From NCBI RefSeq assembly GCF_044324875.1, contig NZ_CP172185.1: a stretch of DNA of 64,000 nt; one strand, 5' to 3'. This DNA comes from Escherichia coli. Its GTDB lineage: Bacteria > Pseudomonadota > Gammaproteobacteria > Enterobacterales > Enterobacteriaceae. The notes under the pieces are model-generated. The model made no database searches. It saw only the letters and a program-made list of their open reading frames with translations, and was not told the origin of the DNA. Positions 25,010 to 42,476 of the stretch are shown piece by piece. The position numbers and the translations under genes are program-made. Each line of letters starts with the position of its first letter. Within the stretch, counting starts at the first letter, position 1.

Positions 25010-25264
25010 TTAAAGCTGACCGACAGACTTTCTTAACCTGGTAATATCTCTCTTAGGTGACTCTCCAAACATCCGCGAATATTCCCGACTGAAATGGGAT
25101 AAGCTTTCGTAACCGACAGCATAGGCTGCAGTGGTGACATCGTAATGTTCATTCAGCATCAGTCGCCTGGCTTCATTGAGGCGTAGCCATTTCTGATACC
25201 GGAGTGGACTCATTCCCGCAAGCTGTCTGAATTGTTGATGGAAAGAGGGGGTGTTCATTTGCAC
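25010..25264 (-). pseudogene. yneL: AraC-family regulator remnant (C-terminal HTH only, yneL-like)
   Basis: 84-aa ORF containing only the second AraC HTH region (…GMSPLRYQKWLRLNEARRLM…); no N-terminal domain is encoded upstream in frame. Confidence 0.7.
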
Positions 25265-25678: not shown

Positions 25679-26482
25679 TTACCTTTTACTCGATGATCGA
25701 TTGTTTAGCACCTCTCCCACAACCGGAGCAGCGGTAAATGCGTTTGGCCAGCCAGCATAGAAGGCGGCCTGGGTAACGATCTCACCAGCTTCCTCAACAG
25801 AAAGTCCATTATCCATTGCTCTATTGAGGTGATAGCCAATCTGCGCGCTCTGTCCGGATGCGATTAAGGCGCTGACCGTAATCAGGCTTCTGTCGCGGGG
25901 TTTCAGCGCGGGTCTTTGCCAGAGATCCAGGAAGAGTGGATCAGCAGTGAATTTAACCAGGCCTGGAGATATTGGGCCAACATTTTTTTCCACTGTCTCT
26001 GAACGCTGCTTTTCTGCTTCCTGATTGAGAGGAAGCAGGCCCGGAGAAGCTTCAGGAAGTGCATCTGCCGTGACGCCACGAGTTTCAAATACTGCTTTGA
26101 TCACGCTGACGGCTGACATTGCATTTGGCCAACCTGAGTAGAACGCCAGATGGGTAATGATTTCTGATAATTCCGCTGGCGTCACGCCGCTATCGAGAGC
26201 GACGTCAATATAGTGCTTAAGCTCGGCAGGCTGGTTGCGGGCAATCAGCATGGCGACGGTCACCACACTACGATCCCTCGGTGAGAGGGCGTCGCGTGTC
26301 CACAGATCTTCAGTAATAGCTTCGCGACCAAAGCGCGCGAGAGCCGGTGAGACGGAACGAATATCAGCTTCCGAAATCGCTGACGGTTCTATTTTCATCA
26401 TAGCTTTACCTCTTGTTTCCTCAGCATTGGCAAAATCAGAAATAACAAGCGACATAGCCGCTGCTGCAAGTACGCTTTTCAT
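25679..26482 (-). CDS. secreted tandem carboxymuconolactone-decarboxylase (CMD/AhpD-like) domain protein
   Basis: 267-aa ORF; signal peptide MKSVLAAAAMSLVISDFANA; two internally repeated ~100-aa CMD-like domains (DLWTRDALSPRDRS… and DLWQRPALKPRDRS…). Confidence 0.8.
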   Translation of the reverse strand: MKSVLAAAAMSLVISDFANAEETRGKAMMKIEPSAISEADIRSVSPALARFGREAITEDLWTRDALSPRDRSVVTVAMLIARNQPAELKHYIDVALDSGVTPAELSEIITHLAFYSGWPNAMSAVSVIKAVFETRGVTADALPEASPGLLPLNQEAEKQRSETVEKNVGPISPGLVKFTADPLFLDLWQRPALKPRDRSLITVSALIASGQSAQIGYHLNRAMDNGLSVEEAGEIVTQAAFYAGWPNAFTAAPVVGEVLNNRSSSKR

Positions 26483-26497
26483 GTTAATCCTTACTGG

Positions 26498-27223
26498 TCA
26501 ACGTTGCGGCTCCTGTTTGATTCCGCCTTTGTTACGAAGAAATACCGGTTTTACCGGGATTGCGTCCTTCCTGGCGCTCATATGCGCCGTTTGCCTGAGG
26601 TAATCCAGGATGTGCAGCGTTTGTCGGTGCAGTTGATAATCCTCCTCACTGGCGTAAATCTCATAGAAATACCAGCGTTTTGGAGTCTCTGAATCTGTAC
26701 CGGCATACATGGCTAACACGCCTTTCTCTACTTTGAGCGACTCGACCATTTCAGGAAGGACGATGTTTCTAAATTCGCTCTGAAATTCAGGCTTTACTTC
26801 GACGATCACCAGATTATTGATAGTTCGTTCATTCGGTATGATGTGTTTGTCGCCCAGAAACTGTGGCTCCAGGGTAATTTTCTTCTTCCTGTCAATAATG
26901 TCAGGTGCACGAGCAGCGAATGCTTTGTATGGGGCGGCATTGAGATGTTTGCGATAAGCACGCTCATTTTCATAGAGTTCGAACATGAATGCCTGACCTG
27001 AATTGTCGCTGCGTTGCAGGGCATACATCGCCAGTGTACCTGCTTCATGATCAACCGAAGCGGAAATCGTCTGTCTGGCCACGTCTGCAAAGTCGTTGTC
27101 CCGATCGGGTCTGATGCCGAGCTCGAAGATATTCATCTCCGACTTATTCGGCGCGTCCGGTTTTGTTGCAAAGACAGGGCTGCTTATTAGCATGCAAATT
27201 AAAAGCATAAAAGTCTTTTTCAC
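26498..27223 (-). CDS. secreted tandem ABM (antibiotic-biosynthesis-monooxygenase / quinol-monooxygenase-like) domain protein
   Basis: 241-aa ORF; signal peptide MKKTFMLLICMLISSPVFA; two ABM-like halves (LAMYALQ…FELYENERAYRKH and LAMYAGT…YEIYASEEDYQLH). Start is GTG at 27223 or ATG at 27208. Confidence 0.75.
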   Translation of the reverse strand: MKKTFMLLICMLISSPVFATKPDAPNKSEMNIFELGIRPDRDNDFADVARQTISASVDHEAGTLAMYALQRSDNSGQAFMFELYENERAYRKHLNAAPYKAFAARAPDIIDRKKKITLEPQFLGDKHIIPNERTINNLVIVEVKPEFQSEFRNIVLPEMVESLKVEKGVLAMYAGTDSETPKRWYFYEIYASEEDYQLHRQTLHILDYLRQTAHMSARKDAIPVKPVFLRNKGGIKQEPQR

Positions 27224-27338: not shown

Positions 27339-30317
<2,979 letters not shown>

Positions 30318-30319
30318 TG

Positions 30320-30892
30320 TTATTCTCCCTCTGGATTATTCACGACGGAATTGAGCAGTTCGACAAGCCTTGAAGCGTGTTCCCGGGCAAGCGTTTTTTG
30401 CTGCGCGATTTTGTCGGCATCCCGGTCGGCATAGCTGATACCGCAGGTATAAACCGGCGTCAGCAGCTCAAGATTGCACAGCCTTGCCGTGGTTTCGAAC
30501 GGAATAAGATACTCTTCAATGGTATGGCCAAAGAAACTGTCGACGGTATAGAGCTCCTCTGGCGCTCCCGTTGTAAAGGAGAGGATCAGCTTTTTACCGC
30601 CCAGTTTCGCCGTTGAGCCATGCGCGAAGCCGTGAACAAAGACCTCGTCCAGCCATTTTTTCATTAATCCTGGCAGCCCATACCAGGAAAAAGGGAACTG
30701 CCAGACAATCACATCGGCCCTGAGCAGGCTTTCCTGCTCCGCCGCGATGTTGAATTTGCCATCCGGATAGAGCCTGTCCAGACGACGAATCTCAACATCA
30801 GGAAGGGCGGTCTCCACTTCATCAAGAATAGTGGCATTGGCGACGGAATGGGTAAGCTCAGGATGACCTGAAATAACAAGGATATTTTTCAT
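30320..30892 (-). CDS. flavodoxin-like NAD(P)H:quinone oxidoreductase (KefG/KefF/MdaB-like)
   Basis: 190-aa ORF MKNILVISGHPE…; resembles KefG-type quinone reductases; stop is 2 bp upstream of the disrupted AKR start (same operon). Confidence 0.75.
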   Translation of the reverse strand: MKNILVISGHPELTHSVANATILDEVETALPDVEIRRLDRLYPDGKFNIAAEQESLLRADVIVWQFPFSWYGLPGLMKKWLDEVFVHGFAHGSTAKLGGKKLILSFTTGAPEELYTVDSFFGHTIEEYLIPFETTARLCNLELLTPVYTCGISYADRDADKIAQQKTLAREHASRLVELLNSVVNNPEGE

Positions 30893-31041: not shown

Positions 31042-31718
31042 CTACGCCGTGATGCCCAGTAAACGTTCTGCATTGCGAAATGCGATGGCCTCTTTTTCAG
31101 CCTTGTTGACGGGCAGACTGTCTATAAAGGTTTTTACACCGTCCAGGGTCTGATAGGGATAATCGACGGAGAACAGGATCCTTTCAGCACCCATTAACGC
31201 GTAGATAAACTGGAAGTGCGGCAGTGTTAGCATATGGCGGGGTAACGTAAACGTGTTCCTGGAAGGTTCTCGTTAGCGTGCGTGACAGACCCGTTGCAGC
31301 CAGTGGTAGGCTGTCATCAAGACGCTGGAGCCAGAAGGGTAACATCTCCCCCCAGTGGCCACTGATTACCTGCAGGTTGGGATATTTATCAAATGCGCCC
31401 GATAACATCAGCCGCAACAAATGGATCCCCGCTTCGTGATGCCAGCCCCAGGCAAACATAGAAAGCCTGGCGTTGACCTCTGCGCTGAAGCCCGTGAAGT
31501 AGGCCTGCTGTACGCTTTTAAGCGGTAACCCGGGATGAAGATAGAGTGGCACATTCAGTTTATTAAAGCGGGAAAGCAGGGAGTCGGTCAGGATTATGAC
31601 CATCAGCGACGGTTTTCCCCCAGTCGCCAAGGAAAGGTGCCTGCTCAAGCGCAACAGGCATACACGCTCGCCCTAACTCGCTGTCGAGATAATGTTCTTC
31701 GAGGCAAATGATTTTCAT
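31042..31718 (-). pseudogene. amidohydrolase-2 family (ACMSD / gamma-resorcylate decarboxylase-like) gene remnant
   Basis: Three consecutive frames carry pieces of one protein: MKIICLEEHYLD… (from 31718), …LYLHPGLP…GWHHEAGIHLLRLMLSGAFDKYPNLQVISGHWGEMLPFWLQR…, …ERILFSVDYPYQ…; at least two frameshifts and an apparently shortened N-terminal region. Confidence 0.7.
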
Positions 31719-31820: not shown

Positions 31821-32768
31821 TTACACCATCGGTTTTTCCCAGGCGCCTCGTGTATCCACTCTGGTCTCTGCGGCGAGTTGTTCCAGCAGGATGATTTCCT
31901 CATCGCGTAACTGGATGTCTGAAGCGCAGGCGGCGTCCAGAACGTGATGGACTTTAGTCGCACCAACGAGGGGAAGGGTACCTTTCGCAATAGCCCATGC
32001 GATGGCTATCTGTGCCACGCTGGCATTCCTTTCGGCTCCCATTTTTTTCATGGCGGCGGTTAGTCTTTCTATCTGCGGCAGTACTGCGTTATAACTTTCG
32101 GCCCGGCCACTCCCGGCAGGCATGGGATGATTTGAATCATAACGACCACTGAGCGCGCCTTGCTCCAGGACCATGTAAGCAAAGAACGTGATGTTATTTT
32201 GTCGGCAATAATCAAGGATCCCGGCCTCTTCAGAAGCGCGATAGAGCAGGCTGTAGTGATTTTGTACTGCACTGAGGGAATAACCGGAAGCGTTAAGGAT
32301 TTCATTGGCGCGTCTGATTTGTGCCAGATTGTGGTTGGAAACACCTACGCGTTTTACCTTACCGCTTTGTAAAAGTGGGATCAATCCTGGCGTCCATTTT
32401 TCGACGTCGAGGGGATTATGGATCCAGTAGATATCAATCGCGTCCACGCCCAAGCGCCCAAGGCTGGCCTCAAGCATATCGCTGACAGGCTGCGCAGACT
32501 GCTTGTCCGCAATCTGCGGCGTGAATTTGGTGGATAAAATTATGTTCTCGCGAGGAAACTGACGGACTAATGCTCCCAGCGCAGTCTCGGAACTCCCCAT
32601 ACCATATACTGCTGCGGTATCCCAGAGATTGAGGCCCTTACTCATGGCCGCAGTGAACACTTCTGCCATCTGAGTATCAGAAAGATGATTACCAAAGACG
32701 GTGTCGCCGCCGGCAAAGCCTGTGCCCCAGGACCATGTACCTAGTGCGACTGGAGGTAGTGTTTTCAT
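31821..32768 (-). CDS. aldo-keto reductase (intact)
   Basis: 315-aa ORF MKTLPPVALGTWSWG… with AKR family features throughout. Confidence 0.85.
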   Translation of the reverse strand: MKTLPPVALGTWSWGTGFAGGDTVFGNHLSDTQMAEVFTAAMSKGLNLWDTAAVYGMGSSETALGALVRQFPRENIILSTKFTPQIADKQSAQPVSDMLEASLGRLGVDAIDIYWIHNPLDVEKWTPGLIPLLQSGKVKRVGVSNHNLAQIRRANEILNASGYSLSAVQNHYSLLYRASEEAGILDYCRQNNITFFAYMVLEQGALSGRYDSNHPMPAGSGRAESYNAVLPQIERLTAAMKKMGAERNASVAQIAIAWAIAKGTLPLVGATKVHHVLDAACASDIQLRDEEIILLEQLAAETRVDTRGAWEKPMV

Positions 32769-32829: not shown

Positions 32830-33531
32830 TTAAGCTGTCCGGCGGAGTGCATTTAACAGCGCCACACCAACCCCATGTGCTGAAGCGGGATTCTGCCCCG
32901 TGATAAGGCGATCGTCGGTAACCACGTTTTCAGACCAGTTTGGAGCTTCATGATAAAGCGCACCATGCTCGCGAAGTGCGGTTTCAAGCAGGAAGGGAAC
33001 CACATCTGTTGTGTGAACTTCTTCCTCTTCCTTGTTGGTAAAGGCCGCCACATTTTTCCCTTTTATCAGGTATTCGCCGCTACTGAGTTTTGCGTCAACC
33101 AATGCCGCAGGCCCGTGGCAGACGGCTGAGACAATCCCATCACTTTCATACACTTCGCGGATAATACGCTGGGCATCCTGATTATCACGGAAATCCCACA
33201 TGGTCCCATGACCACCTGCAAAGAAAACTGCGCTGTAATCGGCACCTTTCAGCTCGGATAACGCAGGTGTTGTTGCCAGGCGCTGCTGAAAATCGGTTTC
33301 GTTCCAGTACCAGGCGTTAACAGGGTCGCTGAGGTTAAATCCATCCACCGGTGGCTGCCCCCCGCGAATACTGGCTATTGTTGTTTTTATTCCGGCATCT
33401 TCCAGTACTTTCAGCGGATGAGTCAGCTCGGCCAGGAAAAAACCGGTTGGTACACCGGATGCGCCTTTAATCGGATGGCTGGAAACGACACATAGCACTG
33501 GTTTATATGCAGGTTTCATATCGGTCCTCAC
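32830..33531 (-). CDS. DJ-1/PfpI family protein (class I glutamine amidotransferase-like; glyoxalase/deglycase candidate)
   Basis: 233-aa ORF with the nucleophile elbow …SAVCHGP… typical of DJ-1/PfpI proteins. Confidence 0.8.
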   Translation of the reverse strand: MRTDMKPAYKPVLCVVSSHPIKGASGVPTGFFLAELTHPLKVLEDAGIKTTIASIRGGQPPVDGFNLSDPVNAWYWNETDFQQRLATTPALSELKGADYSAVFFAGGHGTMWDFRDNQDAQRIIREVYESDGIVSAVCHGPAALVDAKLSSGEYLIKGKNVAAFTNKEEEEVHTTDVVPFLLETALREHGALYHEAPNWSENVVTDDRLITGQNPASAHGVGVALLNALRRTA

Positions 33532-33839
33532 TCTTTATTTTTAAATTCATCGGCGAAGAGATTTTCCCAGTTAATAAAGGAGCCAAGCGGTATACACTCG
33601 AAGCTTAGTAAGCCTGCTTTTGCCAACGGGAATTCGGCCATAACGTTCATCGCTTCATCGACAGAGTCACATTCAAGAAAAATAGCGACGCCAGGTCTGT
33701 CCTGACGGAAGTAGATGTCGCGGATGAAGCCTGATTTATACAATCCCCAGGCGTGCAGAGCTTCAGCGTTGAGGTGCGGAGCATATTTCTCCAGCGATGC
33801 TACAGGGGCAGGGATATCCAGACATAAAATTCGCATCAT
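33528..33839 (-). CDS. small Dabb-fold protein (muconolactone-isomerase-like / YciI-like)
   Basis: 103-aa ORF; stop overlaps the DJ-1 start by 4 bp (translational coupling); AGGAG RBS upstream; family call is by pattern and is approximate. Confidence 0.6.
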   Translation of the reverse strand: MMRILCLDIPAPVASLEKYAPHLNAEALHAWGLYKSGFIRDIYFRQDRPGVAIFLECDSVDEAMNVMAEFPLAKAGLLSFECIPLGSFINWENLFADEFKNKE

Positions 33840-33975
33840 AGTCTCCTGAACTCAGGTCGTAGTAGAAAGAGACTAAAGTATAAGAGGCGTATTTCAGGAA
33901 GATTAGAGGGTCATTGACTTAAGCATTTTTAGACTGTACTTAATAATCAGGCGAGAATTGCTTTAGGAAAACATT

Positions 33976-34875
33976 ATGAATAACGCTCTTTATAACCAGA
34001 TTCGCATCTTCCAGAGCATTGCGCGGGAGGGCAATATTTCGGCAGCCGCAAGGAAACTGGAAATTACGCCTCCCTCCGTCAGCAATGCACTAAAGCTGCT
34101 GGAAGAGTATATCGGTCATCCGCTTTTTGTGCGTACGACCCGCCGTATAGAGCTGACGGAAACCGGTCAATTATTGCTGGAACAGACCGCTGCGGCGGTG
34201 GAGTCGCTGGAAAACTCACTTGAAAGCATTCGCGACCAGCATCAGGAGCCCTCAGGGATGGTGCGAATTACGCTCTCGCGTTTTGCCTACCTGTTAATTC
34301 TTAAGCCTGCGATGGCAGAATTCTGTCAGCAATATCCGGGTATACAGTTAGAAATTTCGGTCTACGACGGTACCGTGAATATCATCAAAGAGCGTTTTGA
34401 TCTGGGGATCCGTTTTGGCGATATTCTTGAGGGAGGGGTGGTGGCCCGACCGTTAATGAAACCGTTTCGTGAAGGATTATATGCATCCTCAGCGTATCTC
34501 TCCCGACATGGAACGCCTGAAGTGCCGGCAGATCTCTGTCATCACCAGCTGATTGGTTACCGTTTTATCACCAACAACCGCATCCTTCCGCTGCTCCTGA
34601 ACGATCGCGGTGAGCAGTTGACCGTTGAGATGCCGGGGCAGTTAATCAGCAACGATATTGACGTTATGGCAGACGGGATCCGTAACGGGCTGGGAATTGG
34701 GCGCTTGTTTGAGCCTGTCTGGCAGTTACAGCCGGACAGGGAGCGCTTTATTCCGGTGATGGAGAGCTACTGGAAAACCTACCCGCCAGTGTATCTCTAT
34801 TACCCCAAAAACGCGGGTAAAACGAAAAGAGTGAAGGCCCTGATTGATTTTCTGATATCCACTACGGGGCGATAA
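33976..34875 (+). CDS. LysR-family transcriptional regulator
   Basis: 299-aa ORF with N-terminal LysR HTH (…IFQSIAREGNISAAARKLEITPPSVSNALKLLEEYIGHPLFVR…); divergent from the minus-strand enzyme cluster across a 136-bp intergenic region. Confidence 0.88.
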   Translation: MNNALYNQIRIFQSIAREGNISAAARKLEITPPSVSNALKLLEEYIGHPLFVRTTRRIELTETGQLLLEQTAAAVESLENSLESIRDQHQEPSGMVRITLSRFAYLLILKPAMAEFCQQYPGIQLEISVYDGTVNIIKERFDLGIRFGDILEGGVVARPLMKPFREGLYASSAYLSRHGTPEVPADLCHHQLIGYRFITNNRILPLLLNDRGEQLTVEMPGQLISNDIDVMADGIRNGLGIGRLFEPVWQLQPDRERFIPVMESYWKTYPPVYLYYPKNAGKTKRVKALIDFLISTTGR

Positions 34876-36907: not shown

Positions 36908-39900
36908 TTACCAGCTATATTTCACTCCCAGCATGCCCTGAGTATCGCTATAGCCTTTATCACCTAGTTGCACACCGACATTCCCCCACAGGCTAAGGTT
37001 GTTATTTACTTTCGCCTCAACCCCGGTACGTACTTCACCGAGATTACGCGCACCATCACGGCTTACGGTTTGACCATTCATCTTCACTGCGTAGACTTTG
37101 CTGTTGTTGATCCAGTTCGCTTCAATGTAAGGCTGGAACTCACGCTGTTTACCATCGTCACGCTGGTGATGGCTGTTCAGGTAGGTTTTCACCCCAAGTC
37201 GCGTTTGCACGTTTCCGTCGCCTTCCGTTTCAATGCGTGTTCCGTCTTTCCGGGTATGGTCAGAATCTTTCACACCCATCCAGGTGATTTGTACCTGTGG
37301 CTGGACGTACCAGGTATTCAGCGTCCCTTCGCTGCCGCTAAAAGTTCCCGCTTCAAAGGTATACCCACCCTCAACAGAGGCCGTCACACCGCGAGAATCA
37401 TAGTCGTCAGCAGAACGGTTATCGGAACTGACGCTGTTATCAAACCAGTTATACAGCGCCCAGCTGTCAACATAAGCGCCGGTCTTATTCGCATCGTTCT
37501 GATACCAGGTCGCGTACAGTCCTGCGCTGTAACCGCTGATGCGCCCATCCGATTTATAACCCACACGATTACTCTGAGTATTACTGTGCTGATTGGCGTA
37601 GCCTGCCATCACGCCAAGATGCCAGCGATCCTGCGCGTTGCTACTCCACTGCGCCAAATCGCCTCCTAGCTGCAATACATAGCGGTTAGCCTGAGTATTT
37701 AGCTGGCCGTCACCGGTCCTGAAACGTTCGTGCCCCCCGACATGACGCATCCACATACTGCTTGCCGAACCCTGAGAATGCAGTGAATCTGTATACTGCG
37801 GCTCACCCAGACGGTCGTGTAAGCGATGGCTAAACAGCGAGTTGGCTGCGGCAATGTTGCTGATATAGCTTCCGGCCTCCGGGCGATAAACTGATGGGCC
37901 TTCCGGATCCACAACAGGGGGATTATTGATGGGATCGGGTGTATCCGGTGGCGTTACGCCTTCCCATTTACTGGTCAGATACCAGTTTTTCTCGTCATTC
38001 CCCTTCCCTTTAGCCAGCGTGTAGACGTAAGCCCCAGCTTCGACAGTTCCGGTGGTCAGCGCGAAGTTACCTGCAGAATTACCGCCAACCTCAATGAGTT
38101 CAATACCGTTGACCGTTTGTGCACCGACGCCGCCAATGTTATCAACCCGAACGCGAGTGTTCCCTTGGGTATCGCCTTTCACGTTCATCTTATCGGTGGG
38201 CGAATTATCGCCGCCCAGCGTCGCGTTGAACGTCATCAGGCCATTGTTTCCATTATAGTTACCGTTAACGGTCAGTACATTCCCCGGTTTCCCCCCTTCG
38301 CTGTTCATTTGAACCGTGCCACCATTCTCCAGGTTACCGCCGACAGTGGTTTTAGCGACACGCAGTGTCCCCCCTGGCATAACGTTCACATCACCTGCAG
38401 TGGTGACATTTCCCGACATCACACCGCTGTTATGGATATTAATGTGCTGACTTGCCATATTAATGGCAGAGTCGGAACCGAAAGCAATTTCACCACCCAC
38501 GATATCCGTCGTACCCTGATACGCCGCGGAATCGTTGTTAAGAGTCAGGATCCCGGTACCCAGTTTTGTCACATCACCGCTACCGCTGATACTGTGCGTC
38601 ATCGCCCAGCTACGCTCAGTGGAGATGGTGAGCAGGCCATTATTGATAACGGAAGCATCACCCAGGTTTTTCTGATCGTTGACGCTGAGCGCGCTGCCTG
38701 TATCAATGTTGAATTGCCCCACAAAGCGGCTATTATCGCCATCCAGCTCTACATCTGTCCTGGCGGTTGCGCTCACGATACCCTTCCCGCTTATGCTATT
38801 ACGCAGTTCTCCAGTCACGTTTTTTAGCGTTAACAGACCGTCATTGGCAATATTTCCTCTGCCTAACCCCTGCGTATTATCGAGGCTGACTTCCGCATTT
38901 GGGCTAATGCTGGTTAACGCATTGTAGCGTGCATTAAGCCCCTCGATAGCCAGTGTTCCCCCTGTAACATTCAGGTTTCCGCCACCTGTCAGTTCACCCT
39001 GACTGATCCCACCTTTATTTACCGTGAGCGCCCCCTCTTTGAACAAAACAGTCGAACCCATCTGCCCGGTGAATGTCTCTACCGTCTGCGTCGATCCATT
39101 AAGATCGACGATGGCCGCGTTGCTGATGTTCAGTTCCCGGGTGTTGCCAAGTGCACCATCCGCATCGGTACGTAATGTCCCCATCTGAACGTAGGTTGCC
39201 CCCTGATAGTCGTTCTGACCGTTGGAAAGCGAAACCTGTCGTACCGTATTGATTGCCAGATCCCCTTCACCACCGATTTTTGCCGACATATCGGCTGTTG
39301 CGCCATAGGCTCCGCCATGTTCGGCTAACGTCAGCTTTTGCCCACCATGGATGTTCAGCGCTTTCAGCCCATAGTTAACGTACAAACCATCACCTGGTGC
39401 GGTCGTGAGGCGGAATCCATAATCACCCTCGGCGACCACTGTTCCGTTTTGTGCAATGTGTAACTTTTTGTCCGCTTCCACCGCGTCGCCCTGTAAATCA
39501 CGTAACGTTAATGAGCCACCCGATCCAATAACCGTTTGCGCCTTCACCAGTTGAACGCCGACATGGCTATCATCGTGTTCCAGCAAATTGAGCGTCGTCA
39601 GAGGGTTATTCGCCATGGGATCATTCCACGGTTTAGGCACGTCGATAAGCACGTCGCCCATCCCGTTTACCTGATAGTTACGGCCTTTCCAGGTGTAGTC
39701 ACCCGTGCCGACAACCAGCGTATCGACGCTGATATATCCCTCCGCAAGCGTCGCAGCAGGTATATCCGTATCGAAAGTGAGCGTACCGCCATTCATGGCT
39801 AGTCCACCAATGGATTGCTCTCCCACTTTTACCGATGTGGTATTTTCACTGTCAGACTGAAGCATCGCGTGAGTAAGCGCAGCGGTGTTGTCGCGTTCCA

Positions 39901-41723
39901 GTGTGAAGGTACTGTCTTTCAGTTGGGCAACACCGGCGAATTCAGTTCCTGTTGCATGGGTAAAGCCAAACATTTTGTCGGAGGATGACAGCTGCACTCG
40001 CATCAAGCCATCGCCTTTGAGCGCATTGGTCAGCGTGTAATCTCCTGCACTGTTCGTTGATGCGAGAATGTCGAGCGTACCGGGGCTTGCAATGGTTACT
40101 TCACTCGAACCCATGCCTGTTACCCCATCTGCCGTATGTGACGCAATAGTCAGGAGGCCGTCATTGACCAGCGTTTTACCACTATAAGTATTCCCTGCAT
40201 TGAACACCGTATGGCCTGCATCATGCATCACTTTTCCGTCTTTATCGTCACCCGTAATCAGCATATCGACCTGGTAGCCGGCATCACTGTTATTAGTATG
40301 ATTAAAGACAAAAACGCCTTCGCCAAGACCAAACTCCACTTTCGTCGCATTGGTGATAAACCCGGCATCTGCCGCCGCCTCACCGTGAGCAGCACCAATG
40401 TTTAGCGTTCCTACAGCAGGTTCAAAAACACCTAAGTAAACTTCTCCACCTTCGACATTCAACGTGCCGTTATTCGTCAGGGTTAACGTACCCGTGCCTG
40501 TCGTCCCTACGTTCATATTGAATGTTTCAAGAAGAGAGTTCTGCCCATCCACCCGCACGTCGCCCTTACTTTTGTCATTGAGAGCTATTTGTGTATCACG
40601 CGCTTTAACTATACCTCCGGTGGTAATATTCAGTTCACCCGTGCCTAATACACCGACCTGTAGCAATTGGGCGTTAGTAGATGACGTTTTTAAATTCCAG
40701 AGACTATCCGTTGAAATATTAACTATCCCCTTACCGGAGGCATTTCCTCCGATAAATCCATAGCCCGTTGAATTAAGAGTGGCACCATTACTGACATTTA
40801 CGATGCCGCTACCAAAATTACCGACATTGATACCTACAGTATCGAACGATGATGTCGCATCCATCAGGTTCAGTGTGCCGATACCGCTTGCTTTATCGCC
40901 CAAAAAAGTAATATTTTGCGATACGAACTTACCGCCATCGCTGATATTGAGGTTTCCGACACCCGCAACACCAATGGTGGTATAGACATTCTTATTGACC
41001 TCCCACATCCCCCCCGTGGTGATGCTGACATTCCCGACGCCGGTTTCTCCATAACCGAGTGAGCTTCCTCCGTTGCTGACAACAAGCCCCTCATTACTGA
41101 TATTCATTTCGCCGTGGCCGTCATAACCAAGATTAGTTCCGAGATTAGTGATAACGGAGTTCTTATCCTTAATAGTAATGTTGCCTGTGCCTGTTTCTTT
41201 CATCCCCGCAGTGATAATTCCCGAATCTACTTTTCCTTCACTCGAGACATTAAGTTCACCGTCGCCAGCATCACCGATATAGATATAGCGGAAAGCTTCG
41301 CCCGTTCCGAGGAAATTCCAATGCCCTTTATCGGTCACGTTGACGACACCGTGGGACCCGTCCTGAACGCCCACAAATGAATATTCTTTGTTATTAATCA
41401 GTCCATTATTGGAAATATTGACTTTGCCATTACCGAAATATCCATTATAGAGTCTGCGTACCGTGATAACAGAGTCTTGATCCTGCACATTCAGGGTTCC
41501 GATACCGGTGGCATTGCCACCGATAATCGTATTTTCAGCCGTAATCAGCCCCCCCTCGCGAATAGTCGCTTCCCCCGTGCCTTGATTGCCAATTTGAAAT
41601 TCAATTGAGGAATCATTATTTTTTATTAGCCACTCGCCACCCTTTTCAACGACAACCTTACCATTGCTGTTCGCCTGATATCCTACAATGGCGACGATTG
41701 AACTCGTGACGTAACCCTTATCC
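36908..41723 (-). pseudogene. AIDA-type autotransporter adhesin, 5' end truncated by IS1 (ydeK/yneO-like)
   Basis: About 1600 codons of uninterrupted frame: long Gly/Thr/Asn-rich repetitive passenger and C-terminal beta-barrel ending …LGVKYSW. The frame runs directly into IS1 at 41724; the first 5 codons of the listed ORF are IS1 sequence and no signal peptide is present. Confidence 0.8.
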
Positions 41724-41778
41724 GGTGATGCTGCCAACTTACTGATTTAGTGTATGATGGTGTTTTTGAGGTGCTCCA

Positions 41779-42054
41779 GTGGCTTCTGTTTCTATCAGCT
41801 GTCCCTCCTGTTCAGCTACTGACGGGGTGGTGCGTAACGGCAAAAGCACCGCCGGACATCAGCGCTATCTCTGCTCTCACTGCCGTAAAACATGGCAACT
41901 GCAGTTCACTTACACCGCTTCTCAACCCGGTACGCACCAGAAAATCATTGATATGGCCATGAATGGCGTTGGATGCCGGGCAACTGCCCGCATTATGGGC
42001 GTTGGCCTCAACACGATTTTACGTCACTTAAAAAACTCAGGCCGCAGTCGGTAA
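41779..42054 (+). CDS. insA: IS1 InsA
   Basis: 91-aa [46 protein letters not shown]… (zinc-finger and HTH). Confidence 0.93.
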
Positions 42055-42476
42055 CCTCGCGCATACAGCCGGGCAGTGACGTCATCGTCTGCGCGGAAAT
42101 GGACGAACAGTGGGGCTATGTCGGGGCTAAATCGCGCCAGCGCTGGCTGTTTTACGCGTATGACAGGCTCCGGAAGACGGTTGTTGCGCACGTATTCGGT
42201 GAACGCACTATGGCGACGCTGGGGCGTCTTATGAGCCTGCTGTCACCCTTTGACGTGGTGATATGGATGACGGATGGCTGGCCACTGTATGAATCCCGCC
42301 TGAAGGGAAAGCTGCACGTAATCAGCAAGCGATATACGCAGCGAATTGAGCGGCATAACCTGAATCTGAGGCAGCACCTGGCACGGCTGGGACGGAAGTC
42401 GCTGTCGTTCTCAAAATCGGTGGAGCTGCATGACAAAGTCATCGGGCATTATCTGAACATAAAACACTATCAATAA
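41973..42476 (+). CDS. insB: IS1 InsB frame (expressed as InsAB' transposase by -1 frameshift)
   Basis: 167-aa ORF in the -1 frame relative to insA, overlapping it across the A6C slippery site. Confidence 0.9.

Follow-up and report, generated by a model that had tools for sequence, protein, structure and literature searches.

Two tandem-domain proteins with predicted signal peptides at the end of a LysR-controlled reductase operon in Escherichia coli

What might two adjacent genes for tandem-domain proteins do in Escherichia coli, and on which side of the inner membrane might their products work? This question is raised by a locus in a 64,000-nucleotide stretch of E. coli DNA (RefSeq assembly GCF_044324875.1, contig NZ_CP172185.1), which is called the window below. 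One gene encodes a protein with two ABM domains (ABM-ABM), and the other encodes a protein with two CMD domains (CMD-CMD). A preliminary description made from the sequence alone had read them as an unusual periplasmic two-protein unit, possibly a redox pair acting on quinols or peroxides. Judged from sequences and structure models, ABM-ABM and CMD-CMD are ordinary members of widespread, structurally solved and functionally unstudied families. Both are predicted to be exported, and both are encoded at the tail of an operon that might serve the detoxification of electrophiles. The two genes lie as follows.

27223..26498, minus strand: ABM-ABM gene, 241 residues, GTG start (from the open reading frame list)
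26483-26497, minus strand: spacer of 15 nt between the ABM-ABM and CMD-CMD genes, carrying the Shine-Dalgarno sequence TAAGGA
26482..25679, minus strand: CMD-CMD gene, 267 residues, ATG start (from the open reading frame list)

Both open reading frames (ORFs) are present where they had been placed, on the minus strand, which had gone unmentioned; the transcription order is therefore ABM-ABM, then CMD-CMD. The genes are co-oriented, and the gap of 15 bp first reported between them is exact. The Shine-Dalgarno (SD) sequence TAAGGA is positioned 5 nt ahead of the CMD-CMD ATG, with a duplex energy of -5.9 kcal/mol. Both ORFs are intact and share 98-99% identity with their counterparts in many other E. 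coli. For the 2.1 kb around the pair, matches are present in 952 of the 5426 complete E. coli genomes, and in 461 of these at >=80% query coverage. The window itself is accessory DNA of E. coli. Promoter and terminator scans around the pair gave only chance-level results.

The prediction of export rests on the two N-termini.

27167..27223, minus strand: predicted ABM-ABM signal peptide, codons 1-19, MKKTFMLLICMLISSPVFA then TKPD (from anatomy and conservation)
26423..26482, minus strand: predicted CMD-CMD signal peptide, codons 1-20, MKSVLAAAAMSLVISDFANA then EETRG (from anatomy and conservation)

Signal peptides were judged by the anatomy of their n-, h- and c-regions (n/h/c) with positive and negative controls, and by conservation in orthologues. 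The N-terminus of CMD-CMD consists of MK, an uncharged hydrophobic core of 11 residues, and ANA followed by EE; that of ABM-ABM consists of MKK, a core of 15 residues, and VFA followed by TK. The fimbrial subunits and the chaperone of the window scored alike, and the hydrophobic runs of the cytoplasmic enzymes of the operon do not exceed 8 residues. The pattern is kept in the orthologues of Klebsiella, Serratia, Pantoea, Dickeya, Pectobacterium, and Aeromonas. The variation there is conservative or synonymous, which is the expectation for a translated signal peptide. Two rows, L093 and, for ABM, L013, were out of register in one comparison and were left out of it. By n-region charge, h-region, small residues at -3/-1 and conservation, both N-termini look like Sec signal peptides cleaved by signal peptidase I (SPase I). 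Neither of them contains a twin-arginine motif or a conserved lipobox. The sequence LLIC in the ABM signal peptide was considered as a lipoprotein signal and rejected, because its Cys is not conserved in the orthologues; lipoboxes do occur at the equivalent place in other clades of the CMD family. Both proteins thus appear to carry conserved Sec signal peptides and are predicted to be exported, and here anatomy and cross-genus conservation agree with the preliminary description.

Alternatively, the hydrophobic stretches might be unused, with both products starting at a downstream Met and staying in the cytoplasm. RefSeq and the Prokaryotic Genome Annotation Pipeline (PGAP) usually start the ABM gene at Met11 or Met6 (231 or 236 residues), so that the signal peptide loses its n-region, and some CMD-CMD calls have 240 residues. 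The CMD-CMD gene also has a strong internal SD with ATG, and the signal peptide is lost in some lineages. These points are opposed by the full n/h/c pattern, which has been kept from genus to genus with changes that are synonymous or conservative, and by the SD sequences of the upstream starts, which are as strong as any (mean -6.9 kcal/mol). Other clades have their lipoboxes at the same place, and the ABM gene lacks an internal SD: a candidate start at Met30 was rejected, with an SD of only -2.6 to -4.3 kcal/mol. A purely cytoplasmic pair is therefore regarded as quite improbable. As for the ABM start itself, this strain has a GTG with a weak SD (-0.9 kcal/mol), and the orthologues have AAAGG with ATG or GTG. 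Since the orthologues place this start and AAAGG at the position of the GTG in the window, the long form is taken to be correct, and the SD appears to have decayed in this strain. The ABM case flags a systematic RefSeq start-site error that hides a signal peptide.

Behind the signal peptides, each protein is built of two repeated domains.

26912..27130, minus strand: ABM domain 1, residues 32-104, Pfam PF03992, independent E-value 4.7e-11
26597..26803, minus strand: ABM domain 2, residues 141-209, Pfam PF03992, independent E-value 5.5e-11
26096..26323, minus strand: CMD domain 1, residues 54-129, Pfam PF02627, independent E-value 1.5e-16
25718..25957, minus strand: CMD domain 2, residues 176-255, Pfam PF02627, independent E-value 2.9e-17

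Profile searches placed the proteins in the named CMD and ABM families, and not in unrelated ones. Alignment of the two halves of each protein confirms the internal repeats that had been proposed, at levels far above chance, with 43% identity (E 3e-32) in CMD-CMD and 25% identity (E 3e-12) in ABM-ABM. The AlphaFold (AF2) models are single-chain pseudo-dimers, as had been suspected. The ABM-ABM model has a mean predicted local distance difference test (pLDDT) score of 93.6 and two ferredoxin-like repeats; it is disordered to about residue 28, spanning the signal peptide, and ordered from residue 29. The CMD-CMD model has a pLDDT of 90.9, with residues 1-27 disordered (pLDDT <50). Such pseudo-dimers are already known, because the structural-genomics entries 4g9q, 3f44 and 3mcs show them.

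CMD-CMD is a member of the tandem-CMD subfamily typified by 4g9q, as indicated by its two domains, full-length similarity, and fold. It shares 50% sequence identity with 4g9q (E 1e-73, aligned residues 25-262), and Foldseek superposed its model on this structure with a template modelling (TM) score of 0.95 and a root-mean-square deviation of 1.7 A. 4g9q, for which no functional paper was found, has the same architecture of two CMD domains in a single chain, and its close relatives in Pseudomonas orientalis (L069) and Methylobacterium (L067) also carry signal peptides. It differs in that it belongs to another lineage and offers no mechanism; the operon of CMD-CMD with ABM-ABM is rare for the family. 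The best-named match of CMD-CMD is the NCBIfam model of PcaC, TIGR02425 (E 7.9e-33). CMD-CMD might be the genuine PcaC enzyme of the protocatechuate pathway, and 4g9q was deposited under the name of this enzyme, "4-carboxymuconolactone decarboxylase", with JGI names likewise. However, the match reaches 113.2 bits summed over the two domains, and the equivalog cut-off is 155.7 bits. No pca neighbours (PcaB, PcaD, PcaIJ) were found at the window locus or at the inspected related loci, so that CMD-CMD is described as PcaC-like and not as PcaC. PcaC is also cytoplasmic and single-domain, whereas CMD-CMD is predicted to be exported, and a role as true PcaC is very improbable indeed.

The CMD-CMD protein contains no cysteine in its 267 residues, and no conserved Cys column is present across 85 homologues. 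AhpD-type peroxide chemistry is therefore excluded. An identity as an AhpD-type alkylhydroperoxidase was rejected accordingly, as the catalytic CxxC is absent. AhpD of M. tuberculosis and CMD-CMD have the CMD/AhpD-like helical fold in common, with a weak Foldseek match (TM ~0.4, a poor superposition); AhpD has the catalytic CxxC, whereas CMD-CMD is without any Cys. The family-conserved residues of the CMD proteins are RDR, E104, and H111.

ABM-ABM is a member of the tandem-ABM subfamily typified by 3f44 (Lactobacillus acidophilus) and 3mcs (Fusobacterium nucleatum FN1347), two "putative monooxygenases" with the same two-domain, pseudo-dimeric alpha+beta barrel. Foldseek matched its model to 3f44 and 3mcs with TM 0.96 and 0.93, respectively. 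A PDB sequence search found 3mcs at E 7e-25, and a profile search found 3f44 at E 1e-65 and 3mcs at E 1e-43. The two structures differ from ABM-ABM in sequence (~25% identity), and 3f44 is of a shorter, signal-less type (~220 residues). The closest characterised ABM relatives in the profile search are ArqI (8.5e-11) and LsrG (1.3e-10); chains of YgiN gave no match to the profile in PDB at E<=1e-3. The family-conserved ABM residues are E60, G62, E82, Y84, and H93. The PGAP/RefSeq name of the protein is the generic "putative quinol monooxygenase". Two narrower identities were tried for ABM-ABM and dropped. Membership of LsrG failed: the score of the LsrG equivalog (NF007791) is 54.6 bits, below the cut-off of 135, and the lsr operon context is absent; in a related strain lsrK lies ~11 kb off, beyond hipBA and an autotransporter gene, outside the ABM-ABM operon. 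An IsdG-like haem-degrading reading, drawn from the N/Y/H positions, was dropped because Asn31 is not conserved across the family.

A scan of one genome per species gave at least 595 tandem-CMD loci. The context and export counts below use the best 80 of them; they span Alpha-, Beta- and Gammaproteobacteria, Acidobacteria, and one cyanobacterial metagenome-assembled genome (MAG). Among the species of these 80 loci, about 65 have a Sec or lipoprotein signal, about 13 have none, and 2 have cupin-CMD fusions, with a few mis-scored rows corrected by hand. In Duganella guangzhouensis (L033:5470-6729) and an Acidobacteria MAG (L076:2450-3954), the tandem CMD is fused to an N-terminal part made up of a signal peptide and a region that is cupin-like by eye only. 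The tandem-ABM family is small in an exhaustive HMMER search, with 431 clusters at E<=1e-3; the 150 best ABM matches include 60 tandem-length representatives, 24 with signal-like N-termini (40%) and 36 without. It was thus an overstatement to call tandem or periplasmic versions of these folds unusual, as tandem crystal structures exist and predicted export is the rule in the tandem-CMD family and common in tandem ABM. Taken as found, the pair refines the annotation correctly but in an unremarkable way. It also marks two large "structural-genomics orphan" families, tandem CMD of the 4g9q type and tandem ABM of the 3f44/3mcs type, as largely periplasmic or lipoprotein by prediction.

The pair is the tail of an eight-gene operon with a divergent regulator gene, and is no stand-alone unit as had been proposed.

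33976..34875, plus strand: LysR-family regulator, divergent from the operon
33528..33839, minus strand: first operon gene, 103-residue protein, overlapping the DJ-1/PfpI gene by 4 nt
32830..33531, minus strand: DJ-1/PfpI family protein
31821..32768, minus strand: aldo-keto reductase (AKR) nearer the operon start
31042..31718, minus strand: amidohydrolase (Amidohydro_2) pseudogene, from tblastn with the Serratia plymuthica orthologue
30320..30892, minus strand: KefF-like NAD(P)H-dependent oxidoreductase (Flavodoxin_2), NCBIfam KefF 149 bits against a cut-off of 210, and RefSeq name
27339..30317, minus strand: AKR directly upstream of ABM-ABM, in pieces at 27339-28172 and 30127-30317

The order runs from the 103-residue protein through DJ-1/PfpI, the first AKR, the amidohydrolase, the KefF-like oxidoreductase and the second AKR to ABM-ABM and CMD-CMD. 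It is conserved in E. coli CFSAN018748, Pectobacterium peruviense, Serratia plymuthica, and Aeromonas caviae, and the divergent LysR arrangement is also found in Pectobacterium and Serratia. The NCBIfam matches of the operon enzymes and the regulator are all under the equivalog cut-offs, so that their names hold at the family level only. The 103-residue product had no Pfam, NCBIfam or PDB match; its gene stands beside a DJ-1 homologue in Serratia, a Rhizobiales isolate, Rhizobium rhizogenes, and Pseudomonas asturiensis. In the intergenic region 33840-33975, a search for inverted repeats that could form a LysR box turned up no convincing candidate.

ABM-ABM and CMD-CMD occur together in E. coli, Pectobacterium, Serratia, and Aeromonas. 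However, a tandem ABM was found within 6 kb in only 2 of the 80 tandem-CMD loci. ABM-ABM without CMD-CMD is found in operons of LysR, Flavodoxin_2, YCII and AKR genes. CMD-CMD without ABM-ABM is found in Klebsiella (LysR, Flavodoxin_2, CMD-CMD) and in Dickeya (LysR, flavodoxin, alcohol dehydrogenase, DJ-1, AKR, CMD-CMD). A LysR homologue lies within 6 kb of 65 of the 80 tandem-CMD loci. Each protein thus recurs at the distal end of LysR-controlled operons with a flavodoxin-like reductase and AKRs. What is constant is this gene company, and not the mutual pairing of the two proteins; the idea of a two-protein unit does not hold in general. The tie of both families to LysR-controlled reductase operons is a concrete place to seek their substrates among quinones, hydroquinones, and alpha-dicarbonyls.

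These data bear on the preliminary description's reading of the pair as an obligate periplasmic redox pair on quinols or peroxides. The adjacency with 15-nt spacing, the two signal peptides, the joint retention in the four genera, and the PGAP name "putative quinol monooxygenase" would all fit it. The rarity of a tandem ABM near tandem-CMD genes and the presence of each protein alone in related operons speak against an obligate pair. AhpD-type thiol peroxidase chemistry is impossible for a protein without cysteine, and the ABM profile matches LsrG and ArqI, but not YgiN, in PDB at E<=1e-3. A link to quinones stays plausible from the operon, and the peroxide role falls away. An obligate redox pair is regarded as improbable.

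The operon and the pair are instead proposed to serve electrophile detoxification, acting on both sides of the inner membrane; the probability of this reading is put at about 0.55. The operon parts suggest the usual reactive-electrophile defence, with quinone reductases and glyoxalase-III-like and methylglyoxal-reductase-like enzymes. The compartment and operon membership of the pair come from sequence evidence, and the substrate class and the reactions are what we infer. Candidate substrates are quinones/hydroquinones and alpha-dicarbonyls. Those enzymes of the operon that depend on NAD(P)H would work in the cytoplasm. In the periplasm, ABM-ABM might catalyze an O2-dependent oxidation or an isomerisation, like the LsrG/ArqI-like ABM proteins, and CMD-CMD might catalyze a PcaC-type decarboxylation or a tautomerisation that requires no thiol chemistry. 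The exported pair may act on the same electrophile as the cytoplasmic enzymes, or on its reduced or ring-opened products. The ABM and CMD folds need no nucleotide cofactor, which fits the periplasm, where none is available.

Several known systems show parts of this arrangement. The MdaB-YgiN quinone redox cycle of E. coli, said to have been described by Adams and Jia in 2005, reportedly consists of an NADPH quinone reductase and a single-domain ABM quinol monooxygenase. The window operon likewise combines the gene of a flavodoxin-like NAD(P)H quinone reductase with that of an ABM protein; unlike ABM-ABM, which is duplicated and predicted to be exported, YgiN is a cytoplasmic homodimer of ~104 residues. 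LsrG is an isomerase of phospho-4,5-dihydroxy-2,3-pentanedione (P-DPD), and both LsrG and ArqI are linked to small dicarbonyls. ArqI of P. aeruginosa (PDB 8ECX) is a glyoxal-responsive, glyoxal-induced ABM protein that is co-operonic with a glyoxalase (PMC12274486). The glyoxalase beside ArqI is paralleled in the window operon by DJ-1/PfpI and methylglyoxal-reductase-like AKRs. LsrG and ArqI differ from ABM-ABM in being single-domain and cytoplasmic.

Several points weigh against a detoxification system of this kind. Export of both proteins is a prediction. The family-conserved residues of the ABM and CMD proteins do not identify a reaction, and the two proteins might have a binding or chaperone-like role instead of a catalytic one. 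LysR regulators are very common, so that 65 of 80 loci is weak evidence when taken without a background rate. The ABM-ABM context comes from only four independent lineages, with three more on uninformative or too-short contigs. Literature searches that covered the RefSeq proteins, the PDB entries, CMD proteins of the periplasm, ABM proteins in tandem or periplasmic form, and the set of operon genes gave nothing on these proteins, and no substrate, inducer or activity for any member of either family. Two papers turned up in them were set aside: an ECF41-linked CMD protein of Sinorhizobium is an unrelated member of the CxxC type, and a periplasmic proteome paper lists only an unrelated ABM protein.

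Could one gene supply both sides of the membrane? The CMD-CMD gene contains a candidate second start just behind its signal peptide.

26396..26414, minus strand: candidate internal start in CMD-CMD, with AAGAGGT at 26408-26414, a 6-nt spacer, and ATG ATG (Met28, Met29) at 26396-26401

Initiation at this site would yield a signal-less isoform of 240 residues. The internal SD has a duplex energy of -7.2 kcal/mol, compared with -5.9 kcal/mol at the annotated start, and Met28/29 coincide with the beginning of the ordered domain in the model. The Arg codon within the internal SD is the rare AGA in the five genes inspected, which are enterobacterial or from Aeromonas (the window, L003, L008, L010, and L011). 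A short-linker ATG is present in 34 of 66 signal-bearing tandem-CMD genes, and these come from Enterobacterales, Rhizobiales, Burkholderiales, Pseudomonas, and Acidobacteria. Met makes up 4.0% of the tandem-CMD linkers, compared with 1.6% over the remaining protein. The mean anti-SD duplex energy upstream of the linker ATG is -6.9 kcal/mol, equal to that of the true starts (-6.9), whereas the remaining linker codons of these genes average -2.9 and the genes that lack a linker ATG average -2.7 (Mann-Whitney p ~3e-12 and ~5e-15, respectively). Ranked within its gene, the linker-ATG position stands above 95% of the other linker codons.

Two natural nonsense alleles also bear on the second start. 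In Aeromonas caviae (L010:6920-7010), a TAA lies between the signal peptide and the ATG, and the 240 codons downstream are intact. In a second lineage, which has at least 46 member sequences, a TAG lies at codon 21 (L093:2920-3010), and the downstream ORF of 240 codons is intact as well. The two alleles are independent. In Erwinia mallotivora and others, the protein has no signal peptide, and CMD-CMD begins at the equivalent Met.

In E. coli, mapping has located internal starts that leave out the signal sequence in speA, bamA, ivy, and yghG (Meydan et al., bioRxiv 10.1101/520783). As in these genes, initiation in frame directly behind the signal peptide would make an exported protein available as a cytoplasmic isoform too. 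They differ from CMD-CMD, whose case draws on comparative evidence only, namely the statistics of SD plus ATG and the natural nonsense alleles. That CMD-CMD has a functional second start, with one gene supplying the enzyme to cytoplasm and periplasm, is put forward as a tentative proposal at somewhat less than even odds. The linker-ATG sequences are phylogenetically non-independent, and some of the motif might have been inherited from ancestors that had no signal peptide. If the proposal is true, a single bacterial gene would serve both compartments over a broad phylogenetic range. The dual start is a more interesting lead than the pair itself.

Is the system still working in this strain? The AKR gene just upstream of ABM-ABM is split by an insertion sequence in the opposite orientation, as seen by alignment to the intact gene of CFSAN018748.

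28173..30126, plus strand: IS100 (IS21 family, istA and istB), 1954 bp, with a 5-bp target duplication at 28168-28172 and 30127-30131

A search of the 5426 complete E. coli genomes did not find the IS100 junction. A strain whose reductase gene is intact matches the flanks of IS100 at 100% identity, and the insertion is therefore recent. The amidohydrolase gene is broken into pieces that occupy three reading frames, and it lacks residues 46-163 when compared with the Serratia plymuthica orthologue by tblastn. Further deletions in the operon are seen in other E. coli strains. The system is probably crippled in this strain by IS100, the amidohydrolase pseudogene, and the weak ABM start, and the promoter under LysR control may not drive ABM-ABM and CMD-CMD any more.

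The pair in this strain might even be a non-functional remnant of a decaying accessory operon. Such decay would be consistent with IS100 and its fresh 5-bp duplication directly upstream, the amidohydrolase pseudogene, the ABM GTG start that has lost the AAAGG of its orthologues, the further operon deletions elsewhere in the species, and the presence of the island in only a part of the complete genomes (the 952 matches and 461 longer ones given above). However, both ORFs are intact and closely similar to those of many other strains, and the insertion is a recent event by the identity of its flanks. A mere remnant is thus considered doubtful, although it is a serious possibility for this strain.

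Beyond the operon, the region of the pair is flanked by a ydeQRS-type fimbrial operon and an AraC-family fragment on one side, and by hipBA on the other side. The AraC-family fragment is an 84-residue C-terminal piece of a regulator (25010-25264, minus strand) just downstream of CMD-CMD; the RefSeq annotation of a related strain lists it as an incomplete pseudogene. An autotransporter ORF of 1609 residues with a TTG start occupies 36908-41737 and is immediately followed by IS1-like insA/insB ORFs at 41779-42476. This arrangement suggests that the 5' end of the autotransporter gene was truncated by an IS1 insertion. Its homologue in another strain is annotated as a frameshifted member of the ECSE_1600 family.

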